Shown here one piece after another: positions 18,706 to 59,100 of a stretch of 64,000 nt of DNA. Positions within the stretch are counted from its first letter, which is position 1. Each line of letters opens with the position of its first letter. Position numbers and translations under genes: made by a program. Under the pieces are notes generated by a model. The model was not told the DNA's origin, did no database searches, and saw nothing but the letters and a program-made list of their open reading frames with translations. The stretch is from a virus (taxonomy: Duplodnaviria; Caudoviricetes): positions 96,001 through 160,000 of the IMG/VR virus record IMGVR_UViG_3300017917_003016; one strand, written 5' to 3'.

Positions 18706-18726
18706 ATCTTGCTTAACTAAGGAGAT
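18706..18726 (+). promoter_or_regulatory. ROSE-like RNA thermometer hairpin occluding the dnaK SD
   Basis: AUCUUGCU-UAACUA-AGGAGAU; UUGCU pairs with AGGAG leaving a bulged G. Confidence 0.7.
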
Positions 18727-18731
18727 ATGAT

Positions 18732-20648
18732 ATGTCAAAGATCATTGGTATTGACCTTGGCACCACAAATAGTTGTGTGGCCGTTCTTGAAAACAACAAA
18801 CCCCGCGTAATTGAAAATTCAGAAGGTGCTCGTACTACACCTAGTATCGTTGCCTACGGCGACGAAATCATCGTAGGTGCTAGCGCCAAACGACAAGCAG
18901 TGACCAATCCTAAGAAGACTATCTACGCTGCCAAACGTCTAATTGGTCGTAAGTTTGACGAAAAGGAAGTGCAAAAGGACATTGACCTTATGCCTTACAA
19001 GATTGTCAAGAATGACAACGGCGATGCATGGGTAGAAATTGATGACAAAAAACTAGCACCTCCGCAAATTTCAGCAGAAGTTTTGCGCAAAATGAAGAAG
19101 ACTGCCGAAGACTATCTGGGTCATGAAGTTACACAGGCTGTGATTACTGTGCCAGCCTACTTCAACGATGCACAACGCCAGGCCACTAAAGACGCTGGCA
19201 AGATTGCTGGTCTAGAAGTTTTGCGTATTATCAACGAGCCTACTGCTGCTGCACTGGCCTATGGCTGTGACAAGACCTCTAAGAAGGACCAGCGGGTTGC
19301 AGTATATGACCTAGGTGGTGGTACTTTTGATATTAGTATCATTGAAATTTCTGAAGTAGACGGCGAAAAGCAATTTGAAGTTCTTGCTACCAACGGTGAT
19401 ACATTCTTAGGCGGTGAAGACTTTGACCAACGTCTTATGGACTATCTCATTGACGAATTTAAGAAGGATTCAGGTATCGATCTTGGTAAGGATCCAATTG
19501 CCCTGCAACGTGTCAAATCTGCGGCTGAAAAGGCTAAGATCGAACTATCGGGTCAACAACAGACGGAAGTCAATGAACCCTACATTGCTATGGACTCTAC
19601 AGGGCCCAAGCATCTTAACGTTAAGATTACCCGTGCCAAATTTGAAAGTTTGGTTGCAGATCTTATCAAGCGTTCGATTGAACCCTGTAAAGCAGCCATC
19701 AAGGACAGTGGCGTAAATATCGCAGACATCGACGAAGTCATCCTCGTAGGCGGACAAACTCGCATGCCCAAAGTTCAAGAAGCAGTTAAGGAACTGTTTG
19801 GCAAGGAACCTCGCAAGGATGTCAACCCAGATGAAGCAGTTGCCGCCGGTGCTGCAATCCAAGGTGCTGTGTTGGGAGGAGATAAAACAGACGTACTGTT
19901 GCTGGACGTTACTCCTCTTTCTCTAGGAATTGAGACCATCGGTGGAGTGTTTACTAAATTAATTAGAAAGAATACAACTATTCCTACCAAGGCTACCCAA
20001 GTGTTCAGCACCGCAGACGACAATCAACCTGCAGTTACAGTCTGTATTGCACAGGGCGAACGTGAATTTATCAAAGATAACAAGATTCTTGGCCAGTTCA
20101 ACCTTGAGGGTATTGAACCTGCTCCACGTGGAATTCCTCAAATTGAAATTACTCTAGACATTGATGCCAATGGTATTCTTAAGGTATCGGCCAAAGACAA
20201 GAAGACCGGCAAAGAAAACAAGATTACCATCAAGGCCAACAGCGGTCTGAGTGAGGAAGAAATTGAACGCATGGTTAAGGATGCTGAAGCCAATGCTGAA
20301 GCAGATAAAAAAGCACGTGCACTAGTGGACACTAAAAACAATGCTGAACAGCAGATCTATAGTGTTAAGAAGACATTAGACGAACTTGGCGACAAGATTA
20401 CGTCTGATGAAAAGACCGCTATTGAAACTGCTATCAAAGCCGTTGAAGAAGCAATTAACGGCGATGATATTTCTGGTATTACTGACAAGGTGGAGGAACT
20501 TACCAAAGTTTCTGGTCCGCTATTTGCTGCATACCAGGCTGATGCTGCTGCCAAACAAGCAGAAGTGCAGCCCGGTGAGCCACAAAATTCAGAGAAGGCA
20601 GCGGATGTAGTTGATGCTGAATTCACTGAAGTAAAGAAAGATGCCTAA
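18732..20648 (+). CDS. dnaK: chaperone DnaK (Hsp70)
   Basis: [42 protein letters not shown]. Confidence 0.99.
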
Positions 20649-20665
20649 TGGGTCTTTCATGTTAA

Positions 20666-20684
20666 TCTTGCTTAATTAAGGAGA
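20666..20684 (+). promoter_or_regulatory. ROSE-like RNA thermometer hairpin occluding the hsp20 SD
   Basis: UCUUGCU-UAAUUA-AGGAGA. Confidence 0.7.
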
Positions 20685-20690
20685 CTAAAA

Positions 20691-21134
20691 ATGAAGCAAC
20701 ACTATGTTACAACTTTTGATATTCCAACAATCAGTCGTTTTGCTGTGGGTTTTGACCGTATGTTTGATGAACTTCAGCGCACCGCTACTACCCTTAATGG
20801 TACCAACTATCCTCCCTACAACATCGTTAGGGTCGATGAAACTCAATATGACATCGAGTTGGCCGTAGCAGGTTTTGAAGAAGATGAATTGGATGTTGAA
20901 GTACAAAATGGTGAACTCAGCATTCGCGGTGAAAGCAAGAGCGAGTCTGCTCGACTGGGAAATTATATCCATCAGGGTATTGCTAGTCGTAATTTTGTAC
21001 GTACATTTGCTCTGGCAGATAATGTAGAAGTCAGGACCGCCACTGTTAAGAATGGAATCCTTACAGTGAAGTTAGAAGTAATTGTGCCTGAGCACGAAAA
21101 GCCAAAAAAGATTGCTATTACTTTTCAAAAGTGA
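20691..21134 (+). CDS. hsp20: small heat-shock protein (IbpA/Hsp20 family)
   Basis: GFDRMFD, NYPPYNI, AVAGF, HQGIASRNF, NGILTV. Confidence 0.95.
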   Translation: MKQHYVTTFDIPTISRFAVGFDRMFDELQRTATTLNGTNYPPYNIVRVDETQYDIELAVAGFEEDELDVEVQNGELSIRGESKSESARLGNYIHQGIASRNFVRTFALADNVEVRTATVKNGILTVKLEVIVPEHEKPKKIAITFQK

Positions 21135-21188
21135 TATAATATAAATACTGGGGGAGGAAACTCCCCCAACTAATATAATAAGGACGCT

Positions 21189-21497
21189 ATGAGCACAAAA
21201 GTTGTTACCAAAACCAAAGTCTCGCCAAATCTTAATCTACAAGAGCCTCCTCAGTACAAGGTTATATATATCAATGATGATGTTACTACCATGGAGTTTG
21301 TAATTGAATCTTTGATTTCAGTTTTTGATTACACTCTCGATGATGCGGTATTTTTAACTAAGAAAATTCATGATGAAGGTACTGGAGTCGCTGCAATTCT
21401 TCCCTATGAAATGGCCGAACAGAAGGGAGTTGAAGTCACACAACTGGCGCGCAATAATGGATTTCCTTTAAATATTAAGTTGGAGCCGCAGGGATGA
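21189..21497 (+). CDS. clpS: N-degron adaptor ClpS
   Basis: YKVIYINDDVTTMEFV, IHDEG.GV, AEQK, FPL. Confidence 0.93.
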   Translation: MSTKVVTKTKVSPNLNLQEPPQYKVIYINDDVTTMEFVIESLISVFDYTLDDAVFLTKKIHDEGTGVAAILPYEMAEQKGVEVTQLARNNGFPLNIKLEPQG

Positions 21498-21973
21498 TTT
21501 TCAATCACATTAAAGAACTTAAATCAGCCGGTAAGAAAATAGGTATCACCTTCAGTACATTTGACATGCTGCATGCCGGACATGTGGCCATGCTTAGTGA
21601 AGCAAAAAATCATTGCGATTATTTGATCGTTGGTCTACAGACAGATCCAACTATTGACAGGCCTATGGAAAAGAACAAACCAGTTCAAAGCATAGTTGAA
21701 AGACAGATTCAACTGTCAGCCTGCAGATACGTAGATGAAATCGTAGTATACGAAACTGAAAGAGATCTAGTAGACATCCTGTTGACTCTGCCCATTGACG
21801 TGCGTATTCTTGGTGTAGAATACGAGGACAAGGATTTCACTGGCCGCGAAGAATGTATGATGAGAGGTATCGAACTAGTGTTTAACAGTCGAGATCACAG
21901 TTTCTCAAGTTCAAGTCTACGCAAACGTGTAGCACACGCCGAAACTCACAAAATACTCAAAGCAGACCTCTAA
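21494..21973 (+). CDS. cytidylyltransferase (TagD/RfaE-like HxGH nucleotidyltransferase)
   Basis: TFDMLHAGH, LIVGLQTDP, SSSSLR. Confidence 0.9.
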   Translation: MIFNHIKELKSAGKKIGITFSTFDMLHAGHVAMLSEAKNHCDYLIVGLQTDPTIDRPMEKNKPVQSIVERQIQLSACRYVDEIVVYETERDLVDILLTLPIDVRILGVEYEDKDFTGREECMMRGIELVFNSRDHSFSSSSLRKRVAHAETHKILKADL

Positions 21974-22826: not shown

Positions 22827-22894
22827 TATAGATTAAACCACTATATTATCTAGTCTAGATTCCTTGTAAATACTTTTGAGCAAGGAGCTAGACA

Positions 22895-29957: not shown

Positions 29958-30045
29958 GGAAGTGCGGCTCAGATGGCGGATGGGCACCGGACTGTAAATT
30001 CGGCACACAGAAACGCAGTAGGTTCGAATCCTACCACTTCCACCA
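29958..30045 (+). tRNA. tRNA-Tyr(GTA)
   Basis: Cloverleaf with long variable arm, encoded CCA. Confidence 0.93.
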
Positions 30046-30048
30046 TTC

Positions 30049-30190
30049 AATGACGACCGGCTAAATCTGCGGAGTGCAGGCCCAGGTTGGGGGTGATACG
30101 CCACTCAAGTTCCAACCCGTCATTTATCAAAAAGGGAGAGCGTTGAGCATGAAACCATGCCTGCTCTTAAACGACAATGACTGCGTCCCT
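30049..30190 (+). ncRNA. two small structured RNA modules between tRNA-Tyr and tRNA-Glu
   Basis: aatgacg/cgtcatt closing helix with inner ggttggg/tccaacc and possible gagtg/cactc pseudoknot; aggga/tccct closing helix with gcatg-aaac-catgc hairpin. Confidence 0.5.
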
Positions 30191-30200
30191 AGAGATTCCC

Positions 30201-30278
30201 GTCCCTATAGATTACGATTGGTTAGATCATCACCCTTTCAAGGTGAAGAACCGGGATCGTCGCCCGGTAGGGACGCCA
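30201..30278 (+). tRNA. tRNA-Glu(TTC)
   Basis: Cloverleaf, CCA; atypical T-loop. Confidence 0.9.
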
Positions 30279-30284
30279 GTTTTA

Positions 30285-30373
30285 GGAGAGTTGCCAGAGT
30301 GGTAATGGAGCGGATTGCTAATCCGTCGTTTGCGAAAGCAGGCGCATTGGTTCGAATCCAATACTCTCCGCCA
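30285..30373 (+). tRNA. tRNA-Ser(GCT)
   Basis: Long variable arm, G73, CCA. Confidence 0.95.
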
Positions 30374-30378
30374 AGTAT

Positions 30379-30455
30379 GGTCTGTTAGAATAGTGGCCTA
30401 ATTCGCCTGCCTGTCACGCAGGAGATCAGGGGTTCAAATCCCCTACAGACCGCCA
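30379..30455 (+). tRNA. tRNA-Asp(GTC)
   Basis: Cloverleaf, CCA. Confidence 0.95.
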
Positions 30456-30457
30456 TT

Positions 30458-30532
30458 TGCCGCGTAGCTCAGAGGAAGAGCAATCGGTTGATAACCGATA
30501 GGTCGACATTTCAAAACTGTCCGTGGCAACCA
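30458..30532 (+). tRNA. tRNA-Ile(GAT)
   Basis: Cloverleaf, CCA; one T-stem mismatch. Confidence 0.88.
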
Positions 30533-30537
30533 ATTAT

Positions 30538-30611
30538 TGGGGTATGGTGAAATGGTATCACACAGGATTTTGATTCCCGTGTTCTTGGTTCGATTCCAAG
30601 TACCCCTGCCA
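30538..30611 (+). tRNA. tRNA-Gln(TTG)
   Basis: Cloverleaf, CCA. Confidence 0.92.
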
Positions 30612-30612
30612 A

Positions 30613-30688
30613 GGTAATGTAGCACAGCGGGAAGTGCAGCGTCTTCATATGTCGCAGGTCGTTGGTTCAAATCCAACCATTACCACCA
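30613..30688 (+). tRNA. tRNA-Met(CAT), probably elongator
   Basis: Cloverleaf, paired 1:72, CCA. Confidence 0.85.
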
Positions 30689-30692
30689 AAAT

Positions 30693-30769
30693 ACGCCTGT
30701 AGTTCAGCGGAATAGAACACTGGTCTACGAAACCAGAGGTCGGTGGTTTGAATCCACCCAGGTGTGCCA
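30693..30769 (+). tRNA. tRNA-Arg(ACG)
   Basis: Cloverleaf, CCA. Confidence 0.93.
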
Positions 30770-30835
30770 AATTTACTGATCAGTAAATTTACAGTTAAAA
30801 CTAACTGAATTAGTAAAATTATTACTGATCAGTAA
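30769..30835. repeat. array of AT-rich palindromes with ACTGATCAGT core
   Basis: 22-bp perfect palindrome 30769-90, degenerate copy about 30801-16, 14-bp perfect palindrome 30822-35. Confidence 0.85.
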
Positions 30836-30842
30836 ATTTTAT

Positions 30843-30917
30843 GGTGTCTGTAGTGTAGCGGCAACACTCAAGATTGTGGATCTTGCATCATGAGTTCGAA
30901 CCTCATCGGGCACCCCA
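30843..30917 (+). tRNA. tRNA-His(GTG)
   Basis: G-1:C73, CCA. Confidence 0.93.
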
Positions 30918-30918
30918 C

Positions 30919-30947
30919 TTGACAATTGGTCAGTTTACAGTTATAAT
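30919..30947 (+). promoter_or_regulatory. sigma70-type promoter
   Basis: TTGACA-17-TATAAT. Confidence 0.88.
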
Positions 30948-30970
30948 TATGAAAATTTAAAGGAGGCAAC

Positions 30971-31528
30971 ATGCCAGCAACATTTTTGGTCAGCGACACG
31001 CATTTTGGTCACGCTGGCGTCTGCCGATTCCTGCGTGAGGATGGTACTAAACTCAGACCATTTGACACGCCCGAAGACATGGACGAATTCATGATCAAGG
31101 CGTGGAACGACCGTGTTAAGCCTAACGACAAGGTCTACCATCTCGGTGATGTGGTCATTAACCGCAAGTCTCTCAAAACTCTTGCTCGCCTTAACGGTGA
31201 CAAAGTGCTTATCAAGGGTAACCACGATATCTTTGCACTAGAGGATTATACCACCTACTTTAGAGATATTCGCGGTTATCACGTCATGAATGGCATGATC
31301 CTTAGTCATATCCCTGTGCATGCAGACAGTCTTGCACGTTTTGGTACCAACATTCACGGACATCTGCACGCCAATCGTGTCATGAAAGATGGAGTTATTG
31401 ATCCAAGATACCACTGTGTTTGTGTAGAGCACACCGACTATGCTCCTATACTGTTTGAGGATGTAATCAAACGTATTCTAGAAGAAGGCGGCAGTGTGGG
31501 TTTTAGGAACGGCAACGGTCCACTTTAA
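30971..31528 (+). CDS. calcineurin-like phosphoesterase
   Basis: SDTHFGH, HLGDV, KGNHD, LSHIP, HGHLH. Confidence 0.9.
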   Translation: MPATFLVSDTHFGHAGVCRFLREDGTKLRPFDTPEDMDEFMIKAWNDRVKPNDKVYHLGDVVINRKSLKTLARLNGDKVLIKGNHDIFALEDYTTYFRDIRGYHVMNGMILSHIPVHADSLARFGTNIHGHLHANRVMKDGVIDPRYHCVCVEHTDYAPILFEDVIKRILEEGGSVGFRNGNGPL

Positions 31529-32541
31529 TAGGCCAGCAGATTTCTTGCTGGCCTAATCCAATCAGTCATTAGAAAATGCTGCTTGTTGTGATCTAATACA
31601 GGTTGCAACCTTTCAATTATTTGTCTGGGGTTCTGTTGACAAAGATATTCAACCTGCTGCCACGCTAGTTTGAATCGTGTTTGATCATTGGCATGGTCAT
31701 CATAACTTTCATCGATTACACTACTAAAAGTTTGAAAACCTAATTTTTTTAGATTTCTTAGATAGTGTTGACCTGCAAACACAACAAAAGGTCTTAATGC
31801 TACTATAGGTTTTGCAACTTTTTCTGTAAAATGACTGTATTCGTTTGTGGATATGGTCTCGGCAACAACGGAGTAGTAACTGTTGTTATAGATATCAGTG
31901 GGTATCATAGCACTGACGCGAGCGTCCTCATCGTCAATTTTAAATTGATTAGAAGTAAGAGGTACTCCAAGTTTTGAAGGATGATATTTTGAATCCCATA
32001 GACCATTTTCTATGCGGTATTTAAAATAAGAAAAAATAATTTGATCTTTATACGGACTAGTCTGATATAACTTTTCAATAAAATCTCTATGAGTTTTTGT
32101 TGAGCCCAAAAGACAATCAAACATTTTTGGTCTATCATAGGTATGATTTAGTTGCCCTAGTAATTTTTTAGCCCAGTTAGCAGTAGCATAGTAATTAACA
32201 TGATCAATGAACCAACAGACTAAAGGTAAACATCTAGCATGATTTAGATTAAAATTGAGAATTGTATCACTAAAAAAAATTATTTTTTCGTAGTCATTGG
32301 CTTTGATAAAATCAGCATAGTTAGTTGATTCGTTATGCACTGCTTCATTGTTATAGACAAAAAGTCTGGTACACCTGTTCAACAAATGGTTGATGATCTC
32401 AGACTGCTGATCATAGTCATAGGTATAAAAATCGATGGCAATCGTATCGGCTGATCTATCAAATTTGATAAAATCATCAGGTTCAATAAGATGATGTTCT
32501 TGTTGATTAAACTGCCAAAAAAAGGGTCCGGAATAAATCAT
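31525..32541 (-). CDS. glycosyltransferase-like phage family protein (paralog 2 of 3)
   Basis: YSVVAETI...FTEKVAKPI...GFQTFSSVIDESYD. Confidence 0.7.
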   Translation of the reverse strand: MIYSGPFFWQFNQQEHHLIEPDDFIKFDRSADTIAIDFYTYDYDQQSEIINHLLNRCTRLFVYNNEAVHNESTNYADFIKANDYEKIIFFSDTILNFNLNHARCLPLVCWFIDHVNYYATANWAKKLLGQLNHTYDRPKMFDCLLGSTKTHRDFIEKLYQTSPYKDQIIFSYFKYRIENGLWDSKYHPSKLGVPLTSNQFKIDDEDARVSAMIPTDIYNNSYYSVVAETISTNEYSHFTEKVAKPIVALRPFVVFAGQHYLRNLKKLGFQTFSSVIDESYDDHANDQTRFKLAWQQVEYLCQQNPRQIIERLQPVLDHNKQHFLMTDWIRPARNLLAY

Positions 32542-32592
32542 ACAGAATATTTAGCAAGTGTCAAGAGTCTCTATCCCTTATAAATATTTGAA

Positions 32593-33099
32593 ATGAAAAG
32601 ATACTTTTGGATCATAGCATTTTTATTGTCTCCTGCTAGAGCATCTGATACTATTGATTTTGATAAATTATCGCGAGAGACATTTGATCTATATCCTATA
32701 AAAGTAGAATATAGTCAACCTCCTTTAGAACGCATTTCTCCACAGGAACTACATCAATGGATCTGCGGAGACAAATGTCCTGAAGGCATTGAAGTCAAAG
32801 GAGTGTACTTCCAAGGAACAATTTATTTGATTGATAATATTGTTACCTGGGACGACTGGGAAAAAAGTCTTTATGTACATGAGGTCGTGCACTATATACA
32901 GGATTTGATAGGCAAAACTACCAGATCTGGTAGAGAACCATGTACAAATCATCTGGCATTAGAACTAGAAGCCTATAGCCTACAAAGTCAATGGCTCAGG
33001 CAACACGGAAAATTTATCAAACATTCAGACATAGTTGATCTAGCCAGGGCAAGTGCAGCCAGAGGCTGCAAAAAAACAGTTGACACTGTAAAAAAGTGA
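32593..33099 (+). CDS. exported HExxH protein (paralog of 35553-36047)
   Basis: Signal peptide; YVHEVVHYIQ ... ELEAY..Q. Confidence 0.65.
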   Translation: MKRYFWIIAFLLSPARASDTIDFDKLSRETFDLYPIKVEYSQPPLERISPQELHQWICGDKCPEGIEVKGVYFQGTIYLIDNIVTWDDWEKSLYVHEVVHYIQDLIGKTTRSGREPCTNHLALELEAYSLQSQWLRQHGKFIKHSDIVDLARASAARGCKKTVDTVKK

Positions 33100-33108
33100 C
33101 TATATAAT
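33080..33108 (+). promoter_or_regulatory. sigma70-type promoter for the second tRNA block
   Basis: TTGACA-17-TATAAT. Confidence 0.88.
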
Positions 33109-33153
33109 AGATGTATTGGTTAGACACGTTCATTAAAAATTTAGCAGTTCAGT

Positions 33154-33228
33154 CGCGGGATAGTGAAATGGCATCACGGTGGTCTCATAAGCCACAGTTC
33201 CTAGTTCGAATCTAGGTCTCCGCAACCA
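33154..33228 (+). tRNA. tRNA-Met(CAT), initiator-like
   Basis: C1:A72 mismatch; lacks the 3GC anticodon-stem pairs; CCA. Confidence 0.8.
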
Positions 33229-33234
33229 GATTTT

Positions 33235-33309
33235 GCCGCGTTAGCACAGTGGTAGTGCAACGGTTTTGTAAACCGTAGGTCGTCTGTTCGAATCAGACAC
33301 GCGGCACCA
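33235..33309 (+). tRNA. tRNA-Thr(TGT)
   Basis: Cloverleaf, CCA. Confidence 0.95.
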
Positions 33310-33316
33310 GATTATT

Positions 33317-33399
33317 GCCCGGGTGGTGGAATTGGTAGACACGCTGGTCTTAGAAGCCAGTGCTTCGGCGTAAGTGTTCGAGTCTCTTCTTGGGCACCA
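33317..33399 (+). tRNA. tRNA-Leu(TAG)
   Basis: Long variable arm, CCA. Confidence 0.92.
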
Positions 33400-33406
33400 A
33401 AGTTTT

Positions 33407-33480
33407 GCGGCGTTCGTAAAATGGTATTACCTTAGCCTTCCAAGCTAAAGTCGCGAGTTCGATTCTCGCACGCCGCTCCA
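33407..33480 (+). tRNA. tRNA-Gly(TCC)
   Basis: Cloverleaf, U73, CCA. Confidence 0.95.
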
Positions 33481-33484
33481 AGTT

Positions 33485-33575
33485 TCACATAAGTCAGATG
33501 AAGATGATGCCGTTGAAAGCGTGTGAAGATAGTGGACGATAAAACTTTAATTATAGCAGTACACTGGCTTATGTG
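33485..33575 (+). ncRNA. putative small RNA closed by a 13-bp stem
   Basis: tcacataagtcag/ctggcttatgtga; shares ACATAAG/CTTATGT with the 29312-29393 stem. Confidence 0.5.
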
Positions 33576-33579
33576 ATTT

Positions 33580-33655
33580 GGGGGTGTAGCTCAGTTGGGA
33601 GAGCGCCAGCTTTGCAAGCTGGATGTCGCAAGTTCGATCCTTGTCACCTCCACCA
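33580..33655 (+). tRNA. tRNA-Ala(TGC)
   Basis: G3:U70, CCA. Confidence 0.96.
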
Positions 33656-33662
33656 AATTTCT

Positions 33663-33738
33663 GCGGGCGTAACTCAGTTGGGAGAGTGCAACCTTGCCAA
33701 GGTTGATGTCGAGAGTTCGAACCTCTTCGCCCGCTCCA
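33663..33738 (+). tRNA. tRNA-Gly(GCC)
   Basis: Cloverleaf, CCA. Confidence 0.96.
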
Positions 33739-33745
33739 TGTTTTT

Positions 33746-33821
33746 GGAAGGTTAGCTCAGTTGGTAGAGCATCGCCCTTACAAGGCGAGGGTCACTGGTT
33801 CGAGCCCAGTACCTTCCACCA
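33746..33821 (+). tRNA. tRNA-Val(TAC)
   Basis: Cloverleaf, CCA. Confidence 0.96.
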
Positions 33822-33826
33822 AACAC

Positions 33827-34036
33827 TACCGTGTCCTGACGGTTTATCAGGAGGTTGTGAGTATAGGTTGGCCAAACCTTCCAGAAACTCTCAGGTGCTC
33901 TGTCCACCTTAAGGCTACAGCGTAGACGTAGGCCCTGCGATAACGGCCCGCAGGTGTGATGTTCCTCTAGAGTGAACATACGGACAGGGTAACAACTCAG
34001 TTAGGGGCCATGGTGGTGCAGGTAGCCTAACACTGA
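33827..34036 (+). ncRNA. approximately 210-nt structured RNA between tRNA-Val and tRNA-Asn
   Basis: taccgtgtcc/ggacagggta closing helix, tcctga-cggttta-tcagga hairpin, 3' tcag-ttagg/cctaa-ctga domain; no ORF with an RBS. Confidence 0.55.
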
Positions 34037-34040
34037 CACT

Positions 34041-34117
34041 TCCCCGATAGCTCAGTTGGTAGTAGCAATGGACTGTTAATCCATGTGTCCCTGGTTCGAG
34101 CCCAGGTCGGGGAGCCA
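34041..34117 (+). tRNA. tRNA-Asn(GTT)
   Basis: Cloverleaf, CCA. Confidence 0.95.
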
Positions 34118-34122
34118 TTATT

Positions 34123-34199
34123 CGGACATTAGCGCAGCCCGGTAGCGCATCTGCTTTGGGAGCAGAGGGTCGTAGGTTCGAATCCTACATGTCCGACCA
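34123..34199 (+). tRNA. tRNA-Pro(TGG)
   Basis: Cloverleaf, CCA. Confidence 0.96.
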
Positions 34200-34224
34200 T
34201 TTTTAATTTAACTAAAGGTAATGT

Positions 34225-34695
34225 ATGCAAAAACTTGACTTTGACGAAGTGCGGACGTTTATTCAGCAGCAAAGCCCAGAAACCAAAATCTACATTGGTG
34301 GCGATAGTCGTAGATTTCGTAAGGACAATACCTGGCATGCTGAATACACCCTTGCTGTTGTAGTTCATATCGATGGCAAGCATGGCTGCAAGATTTTTGG
34401 TGAGTCTTGCATTGAGCGTGATTTTGATCAACGTCGAGACCGCCCTAGCATGCGTCTTATGAATGAAGTCTACAAGATTAGTGAACTTTACCTTAAGTTA
34501 CACGAAGTTTTAGAAGATCGTGATGTTGAAGTACACCTAGATATTAACCCCAATGAAATGTACGGCAGTAGTTGTGTGGTACAACAGGCAGTGGGTTATA
34601 TTCGTGGTGTATGTAATGTTGTACCAATGGTTAAGCCTCGTGCGTTTGCTGCCAGTTACGCCGCAGACAGACTCAAGGAGGTATTGGCAGCATAA
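34225..34695 (+). CDS. RNase H-like YkuK-family protein
   Basis: KIYIGGDS, RLMNEVYK, EVHLDIN, KP.AFAASYAAD. Confidence 0.8.
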   Translation: MQKLDFDEVRTFIQQQSPETKIYIGGDSRRFRKDNTWHAEYTLAVVVHIDGKHGCKIFGESCIERDFDQRRDRPSMRLMNEVYKISELYLKLHEVLEDRDVEVHLDINPNEMYGSSCVVQQAVGYIRGVCNVVPMVKPRAFAASYAADRLKEVLAA

Positions 34696-34703
34696 AAGTT
34701 TAC

Positions 34704-34779
34704 GGGACGGTAGCTCAGTTGGTAGAGCAGCGGACTTTTAATCCGTTGGTCGCGAGTTCGAACCTCGCTCGTCCTACCA
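34704..34779 (+). tRNA. tRNA-Lys(TTT)
   Basis: Cloverleaf, CCA. Confidence 0.96.
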
Positions 34780-34799
34780 ATATTAAAGGAGATCACAAA

Positions 34800-34982
34800 A
34801 TGAAAACGGTGGTTTTTAAAAATCGAAGATCAAATGAAAAATTTGTCTGCGACAACGTCCGTGATGTCCGTGTGATTGAAGGAGTTGAATATCTACAGGT
34901 ACATCGTCCGGACAATCCTAGAAACTTTTTGATGCGTAAAGATGCACTAGAAAGGGTAGAATCATCCCGCTTGCCGCGTTAG
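34800..34982 (+). CDS. hypothetical protein (60 aa)
   Basis: AAGGAG RBS, ATG 34800. Confidence 0.7.
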   Translation: MKTVVFKNRRSNEKFVCDNVRDVRVIEGVEYLQVHRPDNPRNFLMRKDALERVESSRLPR

Positions 34983-35324
34983 GAAGTTGGCTCGCATGCT
35001 CTTTGGTTTGAAATATTCACGCACAACTTCTTTGACAATATCTATGCTGAATTCTTTGCAACTAAAAACGTCTAGATATAGATCGCCGGTTGAATCTATA
35101 AAGTGTGCAACAATACTGGATGTAACTATGATCTGCACAGCAGTGAATCCTGCTTTGTCGGGTTGATCTCCTGCTGTGTATTCTATCCAAGGTGTGCCAA
35201 TTGGCTCCATGTCAATTCTTTGCACTAGTTCTTCGATAAAGTTTTTAACATTCCATTTTTCCATGATCAGTGCACGGTTGCAGTCATGACAGTCTAATGT
35301 TAGATGATAACCCCAAAAACTCAT
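34962..35324 (-). CDS. speD: S-adenosylmethionine decarboxylase proenzyme
   Basis: WGYHL.LDC; G.TAVQII.TSSI.AH (putative autocleavage Ser); YLDVFSCK.F. Confidence 0.85.
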   Translation of the reverse strand: MSFWGYHLTLDCHDCNRALIMEKWNVKNFIEELVQRIDMEPIGTPWIEYTAGDQPDKAGFTAVQIIVTSSIVAHFIDSTGDLYLDVFSCKEFSIDIVKEVVREYFKPKSMRANFLTRQAG

Positions 35325-35395
35325 TGATGTCTCCTTGACATAGAATTCGTAAGAAAGTATAGTTATTTATTGTGCAGAGCAAAAAGTTAGATATA

Positions 35396-35469
35396 CCCGG
35401 TGTAGTTTAATGGTAGAACCGCAGCCTCCAAATCTGCATGTGGGAGTTCGATTCTCTCCACCGGGCCCA
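35396..35469 (+). tRNA. tRNA-Trp(CCA)
   Basis: Cloverleaf, CCA; unusual C73 and one anticodon-stem mismatch. Confidence 0.8.
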
Positions 35470-35474
35470 TTTAT

Positions 35475-35552
35475 GTAGAGGTGGCAGAGTGGCCCAATGC
35501 AAGGGATTGCAAATCCCTAAAACCGTGAGTTCGAATCTCACCCTCTACTCCA
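35475..35552 (+). tRNA. tRNA-Cys(GCA)
   Basis: U73, CCA. Confidence 0.93.
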
Positions 35553-36047
35553 TTACCTGCACTGTTCTATTAGATTGGGCACTGCAAACCCTGTACTACC
35601 GTGTTTTTTCAAAAAATTACTCTGTGCGGTATAGGCATGCTGTTCGCTCTTAGCCCAGTGTAGGCAGTCTGGTTCATTTTTAAACAAATTGTTTTTTACC
35701 TGAGCCCAGTGTACTAATTCATGAAATACCACACTGGCAGTGAATAGGTTAATCTGCAGCAATGCTGGACTGATCAGTATCTCACCAGTCTCGTCGTCTG
35801 TGATAGCAGCCACATGACAGTCATGATTGACATCTTTGCAGTAGGCTGCTTCTATGGCCTGCCTGCTGGCTAGATAAACTTTGGGTTGTTCTTTAGGCAA
35901 AGGTAATCTGGTTATTTCAGTTATTTCTGTCATCAAAGGTCTGATCAGATTCTCATACATAATTGGCGGAATTGGAGTCTTAGAAATTTCTTGTGCATGG
36001 CTCCGGGCTGTGACCAGCAGCGCCAGGAGGAATATAATTTTTTTCAT
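35553..36047 (-). CDS. exported HExxH protein (paralog of 32593-33099)
   Basis: Signal peptide; VFHELVHWAQ ... EQHAY.AQ. Confidence 0.65.
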   Translation of the reverse strand: MKKIIFLLALLVTARSHAQEISKTPIPPIMYENLIRPLMTEITEITRLPLPKEQPKVYLASRQAIEAAYCKDVNHDCHVAAITDDETGEILISPALLQINLFTASVVFHELVHWAQVKNNLFKNEPDCLHWAKSEQHAYTAQSNFLKKHGSTGFAVPNLIEQCR

Positions 36048-36078
36048 TTTAATTCCAAGTATCTACATACTTATGCTA

Positions 36079-36155
36079 GCCCCCGTAGCTCAGTGGACCA
36101 GAGCGGTGCGCTTCGAACGCACGGGTCGGGAGTTCGAATCTCTCCGGGGGCTCCA
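36079..36155 (+). tRNA. tRNA-Arg(TCG)
   Basis: Cloverleaf, CCA. Confidence 0.93.
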
Positions 36156-36214
36156 AATAAATAACTGTTGACAGCGGTTTAATGTATTTGATTTGATTTT
36201 TCATAAATAAAATT

Positions 36215-36850
36215 ATGCATACTTGTTTATACTGTCAAAAAAATTTTACTAACCTGGGTGGTTTGGGGGCGCATCACCCTTATTGTAAATCTAACCCAGA
36301 AAGAAAACAGCGTACAAAATCTCCCAATGCACATCGTAAAAAAGGTTCAATACCCTGGAACAAAGGGTTATCTATAGAAACTGATCAAAGAATAAAACCA
36401 AGATTAGAACTACAAGGTAAAAGATTTGGTGCTTCGTTAAACGGTCACAGTGAAGAGACTAAGAAAAAACTATCAGAAATCGCCAAAGAACGTAAATTAG
36501 GTGGATATGTAAAAGGCTCCGGAAGAGGTAAAAAAGGCTGGTACAAAGGATTTTTTTGCGACAGTAGTTGGGAACTTGCCTATGTAATTTATTGTTTAGA
36601 ACACGGTATAGATATTAAAAGAAATACAGAAATCAGAGAATACATATGGAAAGGGCAAGTTAAAAAATATATTCCTGATTTTAATGTACAAGGTGTAATA
36701 ACTGAAATTAAGGGTTACAAGACAGAACAATGGCTAGCAAAATTAAAAGCAAATATTGATGTAAAAGTCTTGTATGAAAAAGATTTAGAGTATATAATAG
36801 AGTATGTTAGTAGCAAATACGGTAAAGATTTTGTAAAGTTGTACGAGTAA
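36215..36850 (+). mobile_element. free-standing homing-endonuclease-like gene (Zn finger, NUMOD3-like motif, PD-(D/E)XK/TnsA-like domain)
   Basis: CLYC...H...C; HSEETKKKLSE; DSSWELAY...YIPDF...EIKGY. Confidence 0.7.
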
Positions 36851-36855
36851 TGTTT

Positions 36856-36946
36856 GGAGGGGCAAACCGATTGGTGACGGTACCTGTCTTGAAAACAGTT
36901 GAGCGTTAATAGCGCCTTGGGGGTTCGACTCCGCCTCCCTCCGCCA
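36856..36946 (+). tRNA. tRNA-Ser(TGA)
   Basis: Long variable arm, CCA. Confidence 0.92.
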
Positions 36947-36961
36947 ATTTTATGAGGCTGT

Positions 36962-37582
36962 ATGATTAAACTGCTAGGAAAACTACCGCGAGAAATTTGG
37001 GTAGCCTGCTCAGGTGGTGTCGATAGTCTTGCTGCTGTAGATTTTCTCAAAAACAATCATCGCGTTAGTGTGGTTTTTGTGCATCATGGCACAGAAGCCA
37101 GCGACCAAGGCATGATCAAAGTCTGCGAATATGCAGACACACACGCACTGCCGGTAGTGGTAAAATACATCGATACCCATCGGCCGCGCCAGCAAAGTCA
37201 GGAAGAATACTGGCGTCGAGAACGCTATGAGTTTTTTGATGAATTGCACAACGAATGGCCGTTGGTCACTGCACATCATCTAGATGACTGTGTGGAAACT
37301 TATGTATGGAGTATGTGTCATGGCCGCGGCAAGGTAATTCCCCATCGTCGTGGTCGCGTGATTAGGCCGTTTCTTCTTAACTCTAAACAGGAATTGATTG
37401 ATTGGGCTGAACTGCATGGCCTGTCCTGGCATGATGATGCCAGCAATCACGATATTAAGTATACACGCAATCTTGTACGACACGAAGTACTTCCACAGGT
37501 TCTACGGGTCAACCCCGGCATCGCACAAGTTGTGCGCAGGATTGTTAAAGATAATTTTGATCTTGACAGGCATCAATACTGA
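36962..37582 (+). CDS. tilS: tRNA(Ile)-lysidine synthetase, catalytic domain only
   Basis: ACSGGVDS, R..RY, TAHHLDD..ET, RPFL, D.SN....YTRN..RH. Confidence 0.9.
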   Translation: MIKLLGKLPREIWVACSGGVDSLAAVDFLKNNHRVSVVFVHHGTEASDQGMIKVCEYADTHALPVVVKYIDTHRPRQQSQEEYWRRERYEFFDELHNEWPLVTAHHLDDCVETYVWSMCHGRGKVIPHRRGRVIRPFLLNSKQELIDWAELHGLSWHDDASNHDIKYTRNLVRHEVLPQVLRVNPGIAQVVRRIVKDNFDLDRHQY

Positions 37583-37591
37583 ATATATACT
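37563..37591 (+). promoter_or_regulatory. sigma70-type promoter overlapping the tilS 3' end
   Basis: TTGACA-17-TATACT. Confidence 0.8.
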
Positions 37592-37607
37592 ATGTAATGA
37601 AAGTTAC

Positions 37608-37684
<77 letters not shown>

Positions 37685-37704
37685 ATATATTACTAGGTTT
37701 AATC

Positions 37705-37914
37705 ATGATAGAAAAAGAGTTGATTGATCTAATGCTAAGTATTAAGCATGAATTAATTGCTATCAGAACTGATCTAACATTGATTAATCATGATGTAATT
37801 AAAATTAACGAACGTATAGATACGTTGACAACTTTGGCTATGCAACCTCAAGAAAGTATTGGAATCGCTCCAAACACACCGCATCCAAGTTATCTTCCTC
37901 CAGAGGTAATGTAG
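37705..37914 (+). CDS. hypothetical coiled-coil protein
   Basis: ATG 37705, downstream of the tRNA. Confidence 0.6.
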   Translation: MIEKELIDLMLSIKHELIAIRTDLTLINHDVIKINERIDTLTTLAMQPQESIGIAPNTPHPSYLPPEVM

Positions 37915-37947
37915 TCAAAACTTAAATTATTTTATAAGGAAACTAAA

Positions 37948-38277
37948 ATGTTAACAATGCTTTCTGTAGTAGTGGTACTGCTGGTAGCAGGGTATATTAT
38001 TAATACACGACTGCAAAAGTCGCAGACTAAGACCAGCCAACCTACTCCCACTGAACCCGTCAAAGTTACTGTCAGTGAAGAAGTTGTCACAGGGTTGACT
38101 GATCAAAAGATTGATGAAGTTGCTGCGGTAGTCGAGGGTGTTGAAGCAGTAGTGCCAGAAACTAAGGTAGAGGTTGTAGTCGAAACTACTGCCAAGAAGC
38201 CTGCAGCACGTAAGTCTTCAGCACGTAAGCCCGCTGCTAAGAAGGCACCTGCTAAGAAGCCTGCTGCTAAGAAGTAA
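37948..38277 (+). CDS. membrane-anchored protein with Lys/Ala/Pro histone-like tail
   Basis: N-terminal TM helix; C-terminal KKPAARK repeats; AAGGA RBS. Confidence 0.7.
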   Translation: MLTMLSVVVVLLVAGYIINTRLQKSQTKTSQPTPTEPVKVTVSEEVVTGLTDQKIDEVAAVVEGVEAVVPETKVEVVVETTAKKPAARKSSARKPAAKKAPAKKPAAKK

Positions 38278-38286
38278 AGTTTAATT

Positions 38287-38374
38287 GCCCGGGTGGTGAA
38301 ATAGGTAGACACAACGGACTTAAAATCCGTCGCCCTAAACAGGCGTACCGGTTCGATTCCGGTCCCGGGCACCA
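38287..38374 (+). tRNA. tRNA-Leu(TAA)
   Basis: Long variable arm, CCA. Confidence 0.95.
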
Positions 38375-38382
38375 ACAATACT

Positions 38383-38586
38383 ATGGACGTTAATCAACTT
38401 ATTAATCGTGTAAAAAATCTCCAGTACTGGGAAGTGACAATACCAGTACCACCGTTGGTAAAGTTTTCTGGGCGTGTGCCTTTTACTGTAAAAATAGTTG
38501 ATGACCGTGCTGTATGTAAGGTTTTAGCAGTTGACATAGTTGAAGCAGAACGCAGGGTTTTAGAATACTTTAATTCACAAGTTTAA
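38383..38586 (+). CDS. hypothetical protein
   Basis: ORF track. Confidence 0.6.
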   Translation: MDVNQLINRVKNLQYWEVTIPVPPLVKFSGRVPFTVKIVDDRAVCKVLAVDIVEAERRVLEYFNSQV

Positions 38587-38587
38587 A

Positions 38588-38662
38588 CTGCTCGTAGCCT
38601 AATGGAAAGGCAACACTCTTCTAAAGTGTCTTATGGGGGTTCGAGTCCCTCCGGGCAGGCCA
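38588..38662 (+). tRNA. tRNA-Arg(TCT)
   Basis: Cloverleaf, CCA. Confidence 0.9.
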
Positions 38663-38668
38663 AGTTAA

Positions 38669-38759
38669 GGAGAGTTGGCCGAGCGGTCGATGGCACCGGT
38701 CTACTAAACCGGCATACAGTTAACCTGTATCCAGGGTTCGAATCCCTGACTCTCCGCCA
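38669..38759 (+). tRNA. tRNA-Ser body with anticodon ACT
   Basis: GGAGAGT/ACTCTCC acceptor identical to Ser(GCT), G73, long variable arm; loop CT-ACT-AA between CCGGT/ACCGG. Confidence 0.88.
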
Positions 38760-55041: not shown

Positions 55042-55102
55042 AATAACTTTTTGGCCATGGCATGCGTTTGGCTGCACTTGTCCCTTTTGTGCGAGATAAA
55101 TC

Positions 55103-56611: not shown

Positions 56612-56641
56612 ATACTTTATACTACTATATGGACGAATATT

Positions 56642-56773
56642 ATGAAAGTCAAAAACCTAATTAAAAAACTTTATAGTTCTATAATCAGCGGTCGTAAAAA
56701 TTTAGAAAAGAAAGTCTACGAAAAAATAACTCGTAAAAGTTTGAAGCACAAGCACACACAGGCTGTGAGATAA
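56642..56773 (+). CDS. small basic hypothetical protein (43 aa)
   Basis: Translated by hand: MKVKNLIKKLYSSIISGRKNLEKK... Confidence 0.45.
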   Translation: MKVKNLIKKLYSSIISGRKNLEKKVYEKITRKSLKHKHTQAVR

Positions 56774-56813
56774 AATTATGAATTATAAAATTGGTGAATA
56801 TTTACTGACTGCA

Positions 56814-56842
56814 TTGACATACATTGCCATTGCTGTTATAAT
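56814..56842 (+). promoter_or_regulatory. sigma70-type promoter of the tmRNA gene
   Basis: TTGACA-17-TATAAT. Confidence 0.88.
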
Positions 56843-56864
56843 TATTGAACTATTTTTGAAGTAA

Positions 56865-56936
56865 ATAAGAGTATTGCTGTATGAAGTTGATGGAAAGGTG
56901 TTCTGGACGCGGGTTCGACTCCCGCCGACTCCACCA
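56865..56936 (+). ncRNA. ssrA: two-piece tmRNA, acceptor piece (5' boundary approximate)
   Basis: GGAC-GCGGG-TTCGACT-CCCGC-CGACTCC-ACCA T-arm and acceptor strand. Confidence 0.9.
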
Positions 56937-56948
56937 AAAATGCACTGT

Positions 56949-57161
56949 ATGACTGAAGACCAAAGACGTTACGCCTATGAATTGTTTTACCTAGTAAAAG
57001 GCCATGTCAAGTATTTTGACGATGCTGACCTAGAGGCCATAGTCAAAGATTATACTCGGCGTCTGTGGTACAATGAAGAAGCACATTTGTACCGTGAAGG
57101 GTTTGAAGAAGCATATCGTGTGTTTTCGCTGGGGTCGTACAGGTTTCGACAGGGCAAATGA
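56949..57161 (+). CDS. 70-aa ORF within the tmRNA intervening segment
   Basis: Open frame MTEDQRRYAYELFYLVKGH...; protein-like composition; last 10 codons overlap the tmRNA coding piece. Confidence 0.55.
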   Translation: MTEDQRRYAYELFYLVKGHVKYFDDADLEAIVKDYTRRLWYNEEAHLYREGFEEAYRVFSLGSYRFRQGK

Positions 57162-57352
57162 GTACGGATATGGACAGCACGGTAGGCGAAGACCGTAAAT
57201 CTAGCAAAACTTATAGATGCCAACACATCTAAATTTGGTACTGCAAAAGTATCTATGGGCCGCGGCTTCCGCTTCGGTACTCGTAGTGCTGAGGCAGTAG
57301 CAGCCTAAACTCTGCAACCACGGGGTTGGTTAGCCTTGTTACCCAATTAACC
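57131..57352 (+). ncRNA. ssrA: two-piece tmRNA, coding piece; tag ANTSKFGTAKVSMGRGFRFGTRSAEAVAA (57219-57308)
   Basis: GGGGTCG pairs with CGACTCC including G3:U70; GTTTCGAC D-loop analogue; resume GCC after ATAGAT; tag ends in AA-stop. Confidence 0.9.
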
Positions 57353-57377
57353 AAAGCCCACTTCGGTGGGCTTTTTT
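57353..57377 (+). terminator. intrinsic terminator after the tmRNA
   Basis: aaagcccac-ttcg-gtgggctttttt. Confidence 0.92.
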
Positions 57378-57421
57378 ATCTTGATTATAGACAAAATAAA
57401 TATCTAAAAGGATGAGAAAGC

Positions 57422-57796
57422 ATGGGAATTATTATCAGACCCGGGGTTACTATTGGTGGTGGTGTCTCCATAACAGCAGCAGGTGGCGGCGGTAGCCCGC
57501 CCACAGGGGTATATGGATCCGCAGAAGGACTTGGTACGTTTTTTTATACCAGTTTTTCGGGCGGACTTGATGTAAGCTATACCACAGGAACTGCTGCGGA
57601 AACCGCACTGGCAGCATTGAAAACCGGTTCTACACTGATTTTACTTGCCGGAAACGGGTTCAACAATGTAGGAGTGACCGTGAACGCTCCCGGCACTGGC
57701 GGTGGAGGTCTGTATTCGTTTACCGTGACTTTCAATAACACCAGTGGTTTCAACTTTAGTGAAAACGGCAGCAGTATTAACATCCTGTCTTTTTAA
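57422..57796 (+). CDS. hypothetical Gly-rich beta protein, possibly virion-associated
   Basis: ORF track. Confidence 0.6.
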   Translation: MGIIIRPGVTIGGGVSITAAGGGGSPPTGVYGSAEGLGTFFYTSFSGGLDVSYTTGTAAETALAALKTGSTLILLAGNGFNNVGVTVNAPGTGGGGLYSFTVTFNNTSGFNFSENGSSINILSF

Positions 57797-57892
57797 AACA
57801 GGATGTTGAGTTGTCTTATTCAAATTATATTGTACAGGTCAACTGCCCCAAAAATATGTATACCTTATAAAAAGATAGTCTTGCTCTAATGG

Positions 57893-57921
57893 TTGACAAT
57901 CTAAACGATTGATGTTAGACT
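57893..57921 (+). promoter_or_regulatory. sigma70-type promoter
   Basis: TTGACA-17-TAGACT. Confidence 0.7.
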
Positions 57922-57931
57922 GCTTGTTATT

Positions 57932-58519
57932 ATGCAACCTCTAGAAAAGATCTATACCGATATGAACTATGCTGCTGAAATTCGCCAGTCTCTAGATTTC
58001 AATCGTTATGCTAAACTGATTCAAGCATTGGGCAATTCACTCAATGACCGCAAGAGCCGCTTTGACAAAAGCGACATCATCGAACAAAGCATTGAAACCT
58101 ATAGCAATGGTCGGTTCAAGTGGGTTGACGATATTGGTCGTGACCATGTTGACACTGAAACAGGCCATGATCTAGAGTTCAAATATGCGCAGAGCAGTCT
58201 TTACAATCACAAGGGCAAGCCCAAGGCCACAGTCAAGGTCAAGATTAAAAACAGCCTAGGTGAACACAAGGGTACTAATATTGACAATCCTGCAGACTAC
58301 TATGTGATTGGCCAGCAAGATGCTATGGCTGTGATTTCCTATGAACAGTTGAAACCTTACTTGGTTGCAGTGCCCGACGGCATCGAAGCACATATTCCTT
58401 TTGAACAACTGTCGGTGATTTTTGCACCCAGCGATGTCAAAAACTCCTCTGCCCAGTGCCAGGTAGATTATCTCAAATTCAAGCGCGAGGCACAGCGCCG
58501 CCTTATTGAGAGTGTATAA
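57932..58519 (+). CDS. hypothetical protein, possible PD-(D/E)XK nuclease
   Basis: GRDHVD...LEFKY resembles PD...(D/E)xK. Confidence 0.55.
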   Translation: MQPLEKIYTDMNYAAEIRQSLDFNRYAKLIQALGNSLNDRKSRFDKSDIIEQSIETYSNGRFKWVDDIGRDHVDTETGHDLEFKYAQSSLYNHKGKPKATVKVKIKNSLGEHKGTNIDNPADYYVIGQQDAMAVISYEQLKPYLVAVPDGIEAHIPFEQLSVIFAPSDVKNSSAQCQVDYLKFKREAQRRLIESV

Positions 58520-58520
58520 A

Positions 58521-59015
58521 ATGGATGATCAGCAACTAAATGAGATTCTGGTAATCGACAGAGAGACTCTAATGTCAGTGGTGCCAAAAATTAATAATCG
58601 CCCGTTGAATATTGGAGACTATGATAAAATTTGGCGTTTAAATTTTAGATGGCACGATGTAGTCCAGGGGTTGAACAACAGACTGTCAAACTGCAAAAAA
58701 CGTGCTAAAAATATGAATTTTGATGTTGACCTTGATCTGGGTTATCTTTCAAATCTTTGGTTAGATCAACAGGGTAGATGCGTAATTACAGACAAGATTA
58801 TGAGTTTCACTAGCGGTTCTTTGTATGATAAAAATCCCCTGGCCTGTTCCATTGATAGAATTGACAACGACCATGGATATATTCGAGGTAATGTGCGATT
58901 ATTGACGCATTGGGCCAACAATGCTAAAAGTACCTGGGATCATGACATCTTTGAATCAATGATTGCCAGTAGTGCACGTAAATTGCAACTTGTTGAGCAT
59001 AACCAAAAAGTTTGA
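58521..59015 (+). CDS. HNH-like endonuclease-related protein
   Basis: QQGRC.IT...SIDRIDNDHGY..GNVRL....N.AK. Confidence 0.6.
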   Translation: MDDQQLNEILVIDRETLMSVVPKINNRPLNIGDYDKIWRLNFRWHDVVQGLNNRLSNCKKRAKNMNFDVDLDLGYLSNLWLDQQGRCVITDKIMSFTSGSLYDKNPLACSIDRIDNDHGYIRGNVRLLTHWANNAKSTWDHDIFESMIASSARKLQLVEHNQKV

Positions 59016-59040
59016 CATAAATAATTCTGCTATGTATCAT
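59012..59040 (+). promoter_or_regulatory. sigma70-type promoter of groES-groEL
   Basis: TTGACA-17-TATCAT. Confidence 0.8.
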
Positions 59041-59078
59041 AGCAGTTTCGTGCCTAGATCAGGGCGGAACGAAAATTT

Positions 59079-59100
59079 TATTTGCTTACTAAAAGGAGTA
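59079..59100 (+). promoter_or_regulatory. ROSE-like RNA thermometer hairpin occluding the groES SD
   Basis: UAUUUGCUU-ACUAA-AAGGAGUA with bulged G; preceded by a second hairpin at 59046-59074. Confidence 0.65.

Follow-up and report, generated by a model that had tools for sequence, protein, structure and literature searches.

How does a phage that carries its own dnaK, hsp20 and groES control the translation of these chaperone genes? The question is raised by a 64,000-nucleotide (nt) stretch of phage DNA (hereafter the window), which spans bases 96001-160000 of the 201,732-bp virus record IMGVR_UViG_3300017917_003016 (201.7 kb; G+C 41.7%), and in which each of the three genes has a short predicted hairpin over its Shine-Dalgarno sequence (SD). 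ROSE-type RNA thermometers are found on small heat-shock genes of proteobacteria, and dnaK and groESL are classically under the control of sigma32 or of HrcA/CIRCE. A preliminary description of the window had proposed that the phage runs a ROSE-like, sigma32-independent heat-shock regulon that extends to DnaK and GroES. Our comparative analysis supports the view that the three leaders are copies of a single conserved RNA element with the architecture of ROSE. This is a real phage variant of the short ROSE-like leader, widespread and apparently undescribed, that extends from hsp20 to dnaK and groES-groEL. We consider it rather probable that this variant is a divergent, short ROSE-like translational switch, in which heat would open an occluded SD, and which phages have recruited to dnaK and groES. 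The three elements were scored with R1, a covariance model whose seed of 20 related leaders of equal length (alignment A2) includes the hsp20 leader of the window and excludes its dnaK and groES leaders:

18673-18726, + strand: dnaK leader element, with hairpin I at 18674-18700 and hairpin II at 18706-18726 (AUCUU-G-CUU paired with AAG-GAGAU over the SD); R1 47.9 bits, E 4e-10, outside the seed
20634-20685, + strand: hsp20 leader element, within the dnaK-hsp20 transcript, with hairpin I at 20636-20658 and hairpin II at 20666-20684; R1 56.1 bits (seed member), Rfam ROSE_3 30.6 bits
59043-59100, + strand: groES leader element, with hairpin I at 59045-59070 and hairpin II at 59079-59100 (UAUUU-G-CUU paired with AAG-GAGUA); R1 39.7 bits, E 6.5e-8, outside the seed

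The stretches that form hairpin II read AUCUUGCUUAACUAAGGAGAU at dnaK (18706-18726), UCUUGCUUAAUUAAGGAGA at hsp20 (20666-20684) and UAUUUGCUUACUAAAAGGAGUA at groES (59079-59100), letter for letter as the preliminary description had them. All three leaders share one layout, in which a 5ʹ hairpin is followed by (A/U)(U/A)(C/U)UU-G-CUU, a loop of 4-5 nt, and AAG-GAG(A/U)(U/A). In each, UUGCU lies opposite AGGAG and the SD is paired around one unpaired G, as had also been noticed, and this G is unpaired in the predicted folds of the window leaders. The upstream hairpins reported earlier near dnaK and groES are present, and a third, previously unlisted, precedes hairpin II at hsp20; the dnaK stop codon TAA (20646-20648) sits in its loop. 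The outer pairs of hairpin II are swapped between leaders, being A-U/U-A in groES and U-A/A-U in dnaK.

Is the motif specific to chaperone genes? The exact pattern TTGCTTA..GGAG occurs three times in the entire record, and these occurrences are the three chaperone leaders. R1, run over the full record, finds the same three leaders and one further, weak match of 18.6 bits. (R1 and A2 replaced an earlier MAFFT alignment of 52 leaders, A1, in which the 3ʹ arm of hairpin II was misaligned and RNAalifold saw hairpin I only.) The earlier remark that the motif had not been noticed before non-chaperone genes is upheld by both the exact pattern and R1, but is qualified by the weak site, which precedes a small open reading frame (ORF). 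That fourth ROSE-like leader, a UCGCU variant outside the window (G000:C1:38924-38980; L162:19124-19180), lies before an ORF of 63 amino acids (aa) without a Pfam family (L162:19186-19377). A second jumbo phage (L340) encodes a homologue of this ORF (39% identity, E 9e-8) preceded by a similar leader that scores 26.7 bits, and two more distant homologues are without one.

The element is conserved in related phages. Among 80 IMG/VR loci with a DnaK 72-84% identical to that of the window, the motif precedes dnaK in all 80 and the following hsp20 in 64 of 76; some relatives lack a separate hsp20 leader, the gene being translationally coupled to dnaK. R1 yields 143 matches in 81 sources (the 80 related loci and the window), all of them on the sense strand, before dnaK and hsp20. 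The element also lies directly 5ʹ of groES in ~36 of 80 groEL loci; all 63 R1 matches in these loci are on the sense strand, and the additional ones downstream of groEL precede hsp20 or dnaK. Five large relatives, three of them 95-100% complete, carry the element one to three times per genome, before hsp20, dnaK or groES and once before a small ORF. The copies in the examined loci total more than 200.

From GenBank phage records, we fetched and scanned the hsp20 leaders alone. A ROSE-like leader precedes hsp20 in seven of the eight records tested, most of them from cultured phages (P-SSM4, P-TIM40, HTVC008M, HTVC103P, Atu_ph07, Phosso and C48C1; R1 18-41 bits), and the cultured carriers include cyanophages, pelagiphages and the Agrobacterium phage Atu_ph07. 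The GenBank phage collection gave no gene close to the dnaK or groES of the window, the best matches being largely host DNA or distant. A side observation concerns six relatives (L108, L109, L113, L128, L149 and L152; ~1000-1100), in which the full element stands behind a TATAAATA box before a mini-ORF of merely 8-14 codons (e.g. MSKHTYVT); further on come another sigma70-like promoter and a groES leader of a different type. The mini-ORF may encode a leader peptide or be the remnant of a displaced gene.

These comparative data bear on one alternative, namely that AT-rich leaders with strong SDs happen by chance to hold UUGCU. A looser pattern, TTGCT-N3-9-AGGAG, does have three extra matches in the genome, two of them just 5ʹ of start codons (of an 89-aa ORF and of one of 31 codons), and the isolated hairpins of the leaders fold no better than shuffled sequences. 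However, the E values of the dnaK and groES leaders, both outside the R1 seed, and the recurrence of the element with covariation across divergent phages and bacteria have already refuted chance, to which we assign a negligible probability.

Covariation identifies hairpin I as a genuine RNA structure. It is 98.7% paired, with changes on both sides in seven of nine pairs; its core, YGCC...GGGY, is conserved, and its stem covaries freely. At one position the pair is UG in 79 leaders and CG in 22, pairing being kept through G-U intermediates. For the whole two-hairpin structure the covariation score is 0.380, as against 0.146 for shuffled alignments and at most 0.092 with the pairing partners slid, in an alignment that was fitted to the model and so favours the structure somewhat. 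In hairpin II, across 102 distinct related leaders, the arms CUUGCUU and AAGGAG are near-invariant (UCGCU variants occur) and the unpaired G is kept in 100 rows; conservation of the 5ʹ arm and of this G equals that of the SD, and the spacer and loop vary freely (62 different loops, 2-12 nt). The outermost pair covaries: it is U-A in 60 rows, of the dnaK type, and A-U in five, of the groES type, so that all five cases of U after GGAG (y1) have an A opposite (x1), a count reached in 17 of 2000 shuffles. The register with the unpaired G is favoured over one with a G.G opposition because C64 varies to U alone, preserving the pairing with G92. Hairpin I repeats the local motif of hairpin II, Y-G-C opposite G-G with an unpaired G.

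How does the element relate to known RNA families? ROSE_3 (RF02523) is the sole Rfam family that aligns with it, over the full model length and with both hairpins in register. It scores 30.6 bits at the window hsp20, 38.3 and 30.8 bits at two related hsp20 leaders and 26.5 bits at a related dnaK leader, and gives no match for the dnaK and groES leaders of the window. ROSE (RF00435) and ROSE_2 (RF01832) match none of the three leaders at E values up to 10. At gathering thresholds, Rfam returns tRNAs and a transfer-messenger RNA (tmRNA) alone for the window and nothing for 20 related loci. The ROSE likeness proposed earlier has a sub-threshold, full-length ROSE_3 alignment at hsp20 in its favour, and no match to the other two ROSE models. 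Two further families were considered and rejected: FourU (RF01795) scores 11.4 bits against a gathering score of 60, and freshwater-2 RNA (RF02980) scores 22.2 against 49.9 bits at the groES leader, with several stems mispaired.

The closest characterized counterparts are the ROSE_3 leaders of Pseudomonas ibpA. Krajewski et al. (2013; PMC3669281) showed that these leaders, for which two hairpins are enough, thermoregulate both in vivo and in vitro, that hairpin II alone suffices and melts while hairpin I stays folded, and that repression becomes locked once the G facing the SD is deleted. The phage leaders resemble them in having a stable 5ʹ hairpin with the shared core letters GAUGCC...GGGUC and a 3ʹ hairpin in which U(U/C)GCU and the SD pair and leave one G unpaired, and in lying immediately 5ʹ of the start codon of a heat-shock gene. 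They differ in standing behind sigma70-like or TATAAATA promoters rather than sigma32-type ones, and in being found on dnaK and groES-groEL besides hsp20. The description of ROSE elements as leaders of sigma32-transcribed small heat-shock genes hence does not fit the phage set, in which one gene of the three is hsp20. With the classical ROSE elements of Rhizobiales and the ROSE_2 elements of enterobacterial ibpA, the phage leaders share the U(U/C)GCU/SD principle, the unpaired G and the presence on small heat-shock genes, but those elements have three or four hairpins and longer thermosensing stems (PMC3669281).

If the phage copies are not transcribed from sigma32 promoters, what drives them? 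A promoter scan of the window gave the following:

18629-18669, + strand: dnaK promoter region, with a sigma70-like TTGACT-17-TAAAAT (18629-18657) and a T4-late-type TATAAATA box (18662-18669)
59012-59040, + strand: groES promoter, TTGACA-17-TATCAT, with 11 of 12 consensus matches, ending 5 nt before hairpin I

The TATAAATA box at dnaK likewise ends 5 nt before hairpin I, and an (N)ATAAATA box recurs at the same distance in related dnaK leaders. The predicted groES leader is ~59 nt long, close to the 60 nt estimated previously, and the same promoter layout is repeated in relatives L081, L086, L088 and L098. Hairpin I starts 5-7 nt past predicted -10 boxes. Related hsp20 leaders often have TTGACA-N17-TATAAT immediately before hairpin I. 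The scan found no sigma32-type box at the three window leaders. The sigma32 independence claimed at the outset is therefore in keeping with the promoters, but the independence itself is something we infer, as are SD occlusion in vivo and melting by heat. A palindrome, CTGCTATG-tat-CATAGCAG (window 59027-59045), overlaps the groES -10 box, and relatives carry other palindromes at this position (e.g. CTAGTATA/TATACTAG). The window palindrome might serve as an operator or fold into a hairpin in read-through transcripts.

Could the conserved letters then act in DNA, where a heat-shock or phage regulator would use them as operator or promoter element, with the hairpins being incidental? CTTGCTT resembles the sigma32 -35 core CTTGAA, the element always lies near promoters, and a separate palindrome does overlap the -10 box at groES. 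Nonetheless, every one of the matches in the dnaK loci (143/143) and groEL loci (63/63) is on the sense strand, and the element lies downstream of the predicted promoters, abutting the SD and start codon. With a -35 box ~20 nt 5ʹ of the ATG, the transcript would not include the SD. Moreover, the G-U intermediates and conserved U.G pairs of hairpin I (UG 79, CG 22) make sense in RNA alone. We consider a DNA-level element very unlikely, and return to the reading of the leaders as an RNA switch.

A bacterial counterpart exists. We searched bacterial genomes by an exact-pattern scan followed by R1 scoring, and recovered the element in full 5ʹ of hsp20, both in single-cell genomes of marine Alphaproteobacteria and in a metagenome-assembled genome (MAG) of Candidatus Pelagibacter. 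Within the order that holds this MAG, 47 of 121 genomes have the element, 46 with one copy and one (G001) with two. Most copies are on large chromosomal contigs, and all 30 sites fetched precede hsp20. Elsewhere in the class, five sampled genomes had a match, and the four readable sites precede hsp20. By R1 (30-55 bits), these leaders of the Pelagibacter (SAR11) order and other Alphaproteobacteria are the same element as in the phages, with both a CUUGCUU...AAGGAG hairpin and a YGCC...GGG hairpin. Unlike the phage copies, they precede hsp20 at every site examined, and those of the Pelagibacter order stand behind promoters of the form CTTGAAA...CCCATAT (leaders L296-L324), which we take to fit the sigma32 consensus.

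A few MAG contigs have hairpin II before dnaK; in at least one of them a TATAAATA box is present too, and this contig may come from a phage. A betaproteobacterial origin, hinted at by the beta_tmRNA match in the phage record and by a 'Polynucleobacter' MAG (G005), was rejected: none of 120 other Burkholderiales genomes has the element. In G005, two short contigs (L290 and L294) carry hsp20 with a phage-type leader, one of them behind a phage-type promoter, TTGACA...TATAAAT, and with an Hsp20 59% identical to that of the window; both contigs probably stem from phages and were binned with the MAG. Among the bacteria searched, the full two-hairpin element belongs to hsp20, and its presence on dnaK and groES looks like an innovation of phages. 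In line with the earlier remark that such a system is not known to have been described in phages, a full-text literature search retrieved no publication on ROSE-like elements in either phages or Pelagibacter. We regard the three window leaders as one element with ROSE architecture because of the covariation, the sub-threshold ROSE_3 matches and the homologous bacterial hsp20 leaders.

Is the element a thermometer? Nearest-neighbour estimates for the ROSE-type register give hairpin II a free energy of -6.2, -3.8 and -5.3 kcal/mol at 20 °C for dnaK, hsp20 and groES, respectively, and of -2.9, -1.3 and -2.2 kcal/mol at 37 °C, reaching ~0 at 45-50 °C in all three leaders. For the dnaK leader cut at its predicted transcript start, the minimum free energy (MFE) structure at 20 °C is the two-hairpin ROSE fold with the unpaired G. 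Such predicted values are consistent with a thermosensing role, and the weak phage hairpins would suit cool waters.

Several observations weigh against this reading. No leader in the window or in the 20 related loci reaches the ROSE_3 gathering score of 43 bits (best 38.3). The G-C clamps that flank the core in Pseudomonas ibpA are absent from the phage leaders, and the ROSE_3 consensus hairpin II has -7.8 kcal/mol, compared with -1.3 to -2.9 for the phage hairpins at 37 °C. Since hairpin II is near-invariant, covariation cannot prove its pairing, which is backed by conservation and one weakly covarying pair, and its 3ʹ arm is constrained anyway as the SD. The z-scores of the isolated hairpins against shuffles are -0.2 to -1.8. 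Nearest-neighbour predictions shift with the boundaries chosen. The groES MFE structure prefers a shifted register, making equivocal the folding of the leaders suggested earlier, which the dnaK leader had followed, and one hsp20 MFE structure pairs UUGCUU with codons 2-3. In windows from -60 to +12, occlusion of the three SDs does not exceed that of the SDs of other genes (ranks 36, 38 and 56 of 60), in a genome-wide ranking that is boundary-sensitive and that we used as evidence neither way; partition-function occlusion in these windows has no temperature trend. The window hsp20 has no promoter of its own, its leader being internal to the dnaK-hsp20 transcript. Lastly, the set of chaperone genes under the element is incomplete, as described below.

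These points leave room for a real SD-occluding element that answers to a signal other than temperature: a constitutive throttle combined with mRNA stabilization by the 5ʹ hairpin, or a hairpin opened in trans. Opening in trans might be the work of an RNA chaperone or helicase, from phage or host, or of a small RNA, or might reflect feedback by the chaperones. Conservation is proof of a function but does not reveal the signal; the hairpins are predicted to be weak and, in some folding windows, partly open at all temperatures; dnaK stands behind a late-type TATAAATA box in many relatives, where infection timing may outweigh heat; and the YGC/GG motif with an unpaired G that hairpin I shares with hairpin II is possibly a feature recognized by a protein. 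However, the phage element is on heat-shock chaperone genes only, bar one weak case, and its copies in the bacteria searched are on hsp20, those of the Pelagibacter order behind sigma32-type heat-shock promoters. Its design also matches that of thermometers demonstrated by experiment (PMC3669281), and we identified no candidate trans factor. A non-thermal signal thus seems to us unlikely, though by a good deal the most serious of the alternatives raised here, and we retain the heat-opened translational switch as the preferred interpretation.

The genes at and near the leaders are the following:

18732-20648, + strand: dnaK, 638 aa, ATG at 18732 (Pfam HSP70, E 3e-257)
20691-21134, + strand: hsp20, 147 aa, ATG at 20691 (Pfam HSP20, E 3e-20)
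21189-21497: clpS
59106-61039, + strand: groES (59106-59396, ATG at 59106) and groEL (59417-61039), one operon (Pfam Cpn10 and Cpn60_TCP1)
61065-61090, + strand: putative intrinsic terminator, a hairpin and T-run 3ʹ of groEL, seen by sequence inspection and absent from the pattern-scan listing

The proposed extension of a heat-shock regulon to DnaK and GroES is supported by the presence of the element on all three chaperone genes, but two candidates for the same regulon are without it. Next to hsp20, clpS has its own TATAAATA box, a strong but different 5ʹ hairpin (GGGGGAG-GAAA-CTCCCCC) and a free SD (window 21139-21188). A gene for a DnaJ-domain protein (open frame of ~290 aa; G000:C1:197860-198780) has neither an SD nor a ROSE-like element; its start codon lies 7 nt past a promoter, TTGACT-17-TAGAAT (L325:1450-1530), and the message may have no leader at all. 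We found no GrpE in the record. The record, linear according to IMG/VR and estimated by CheckV to be 56% complete, also codes for a large terminase, a tail sheath, helicases and a ligase. Its terminase is nearest to the PA5oct group of jumbo myophages (54%) and is 51% identical to that of Sinorhizobium phage Phosso. Also in the window are a permuted two-piece tmRNA (tmRNA_permuted 119 bits, beta_tmRNA 86 bits) and two arrays that together hold ~25 tRNA genes (56842-57378 and 29958-38756).

We propose the following mechanism. A stable hairpin I would form at or near the 5ʹ start of each mRNA. In the weak hairpin II, the anti-SD (U/A)(C/U)UU-G-CUU would pair with the SD AAG-GAG(A/U) around the unpaired G and block binding of the 30S subunit. 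On warming, hairpin II would open gradually and allow translation, by analogy with Pseudomonas ibpA, and hairpin I would stay folded, protecting or scaffolding the transcript. In evolution, phages would have taken the hsp20 leader, set it behind their own sigma70-like and TATAAATA promoters, and spread it to dnaK and groES-groEL. With phage promoters upstream and a hairpin over the SD, transcription of the chaperone genes would follow the phage timetable, and translation of their mRNAs would depend on whether the hairpin is open or closed.

What would such leaders mean for the phages that carry them? We see about an even chance that large aquatic phages run a post-transcriptional heat-shock regulon of their own, through a portable ROSE-like leader that has been copied to dnaK, groES-groEL and possibly a small protein, and fused to early and late promoters. 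If so, an infected cell would make phage chaperones on temperature or folding stress without host sigma32, ROSE would be a regulatory cassette that is mobile, and no other RNA thermometer family would have been shown before it to control the synthesis of Hsp70 and chaperonin. In this phage a single RNA device is shared by all three chaperone systems, and it is widespread among uncultured phages; the leaders form a natural series of what would be very weak thermometers, maybe tuned to cool waters. This suggests that phages tune the supply of chaperones for virion assembly to temperature, post-transcriptionally and independently of the host stress sigma factor.

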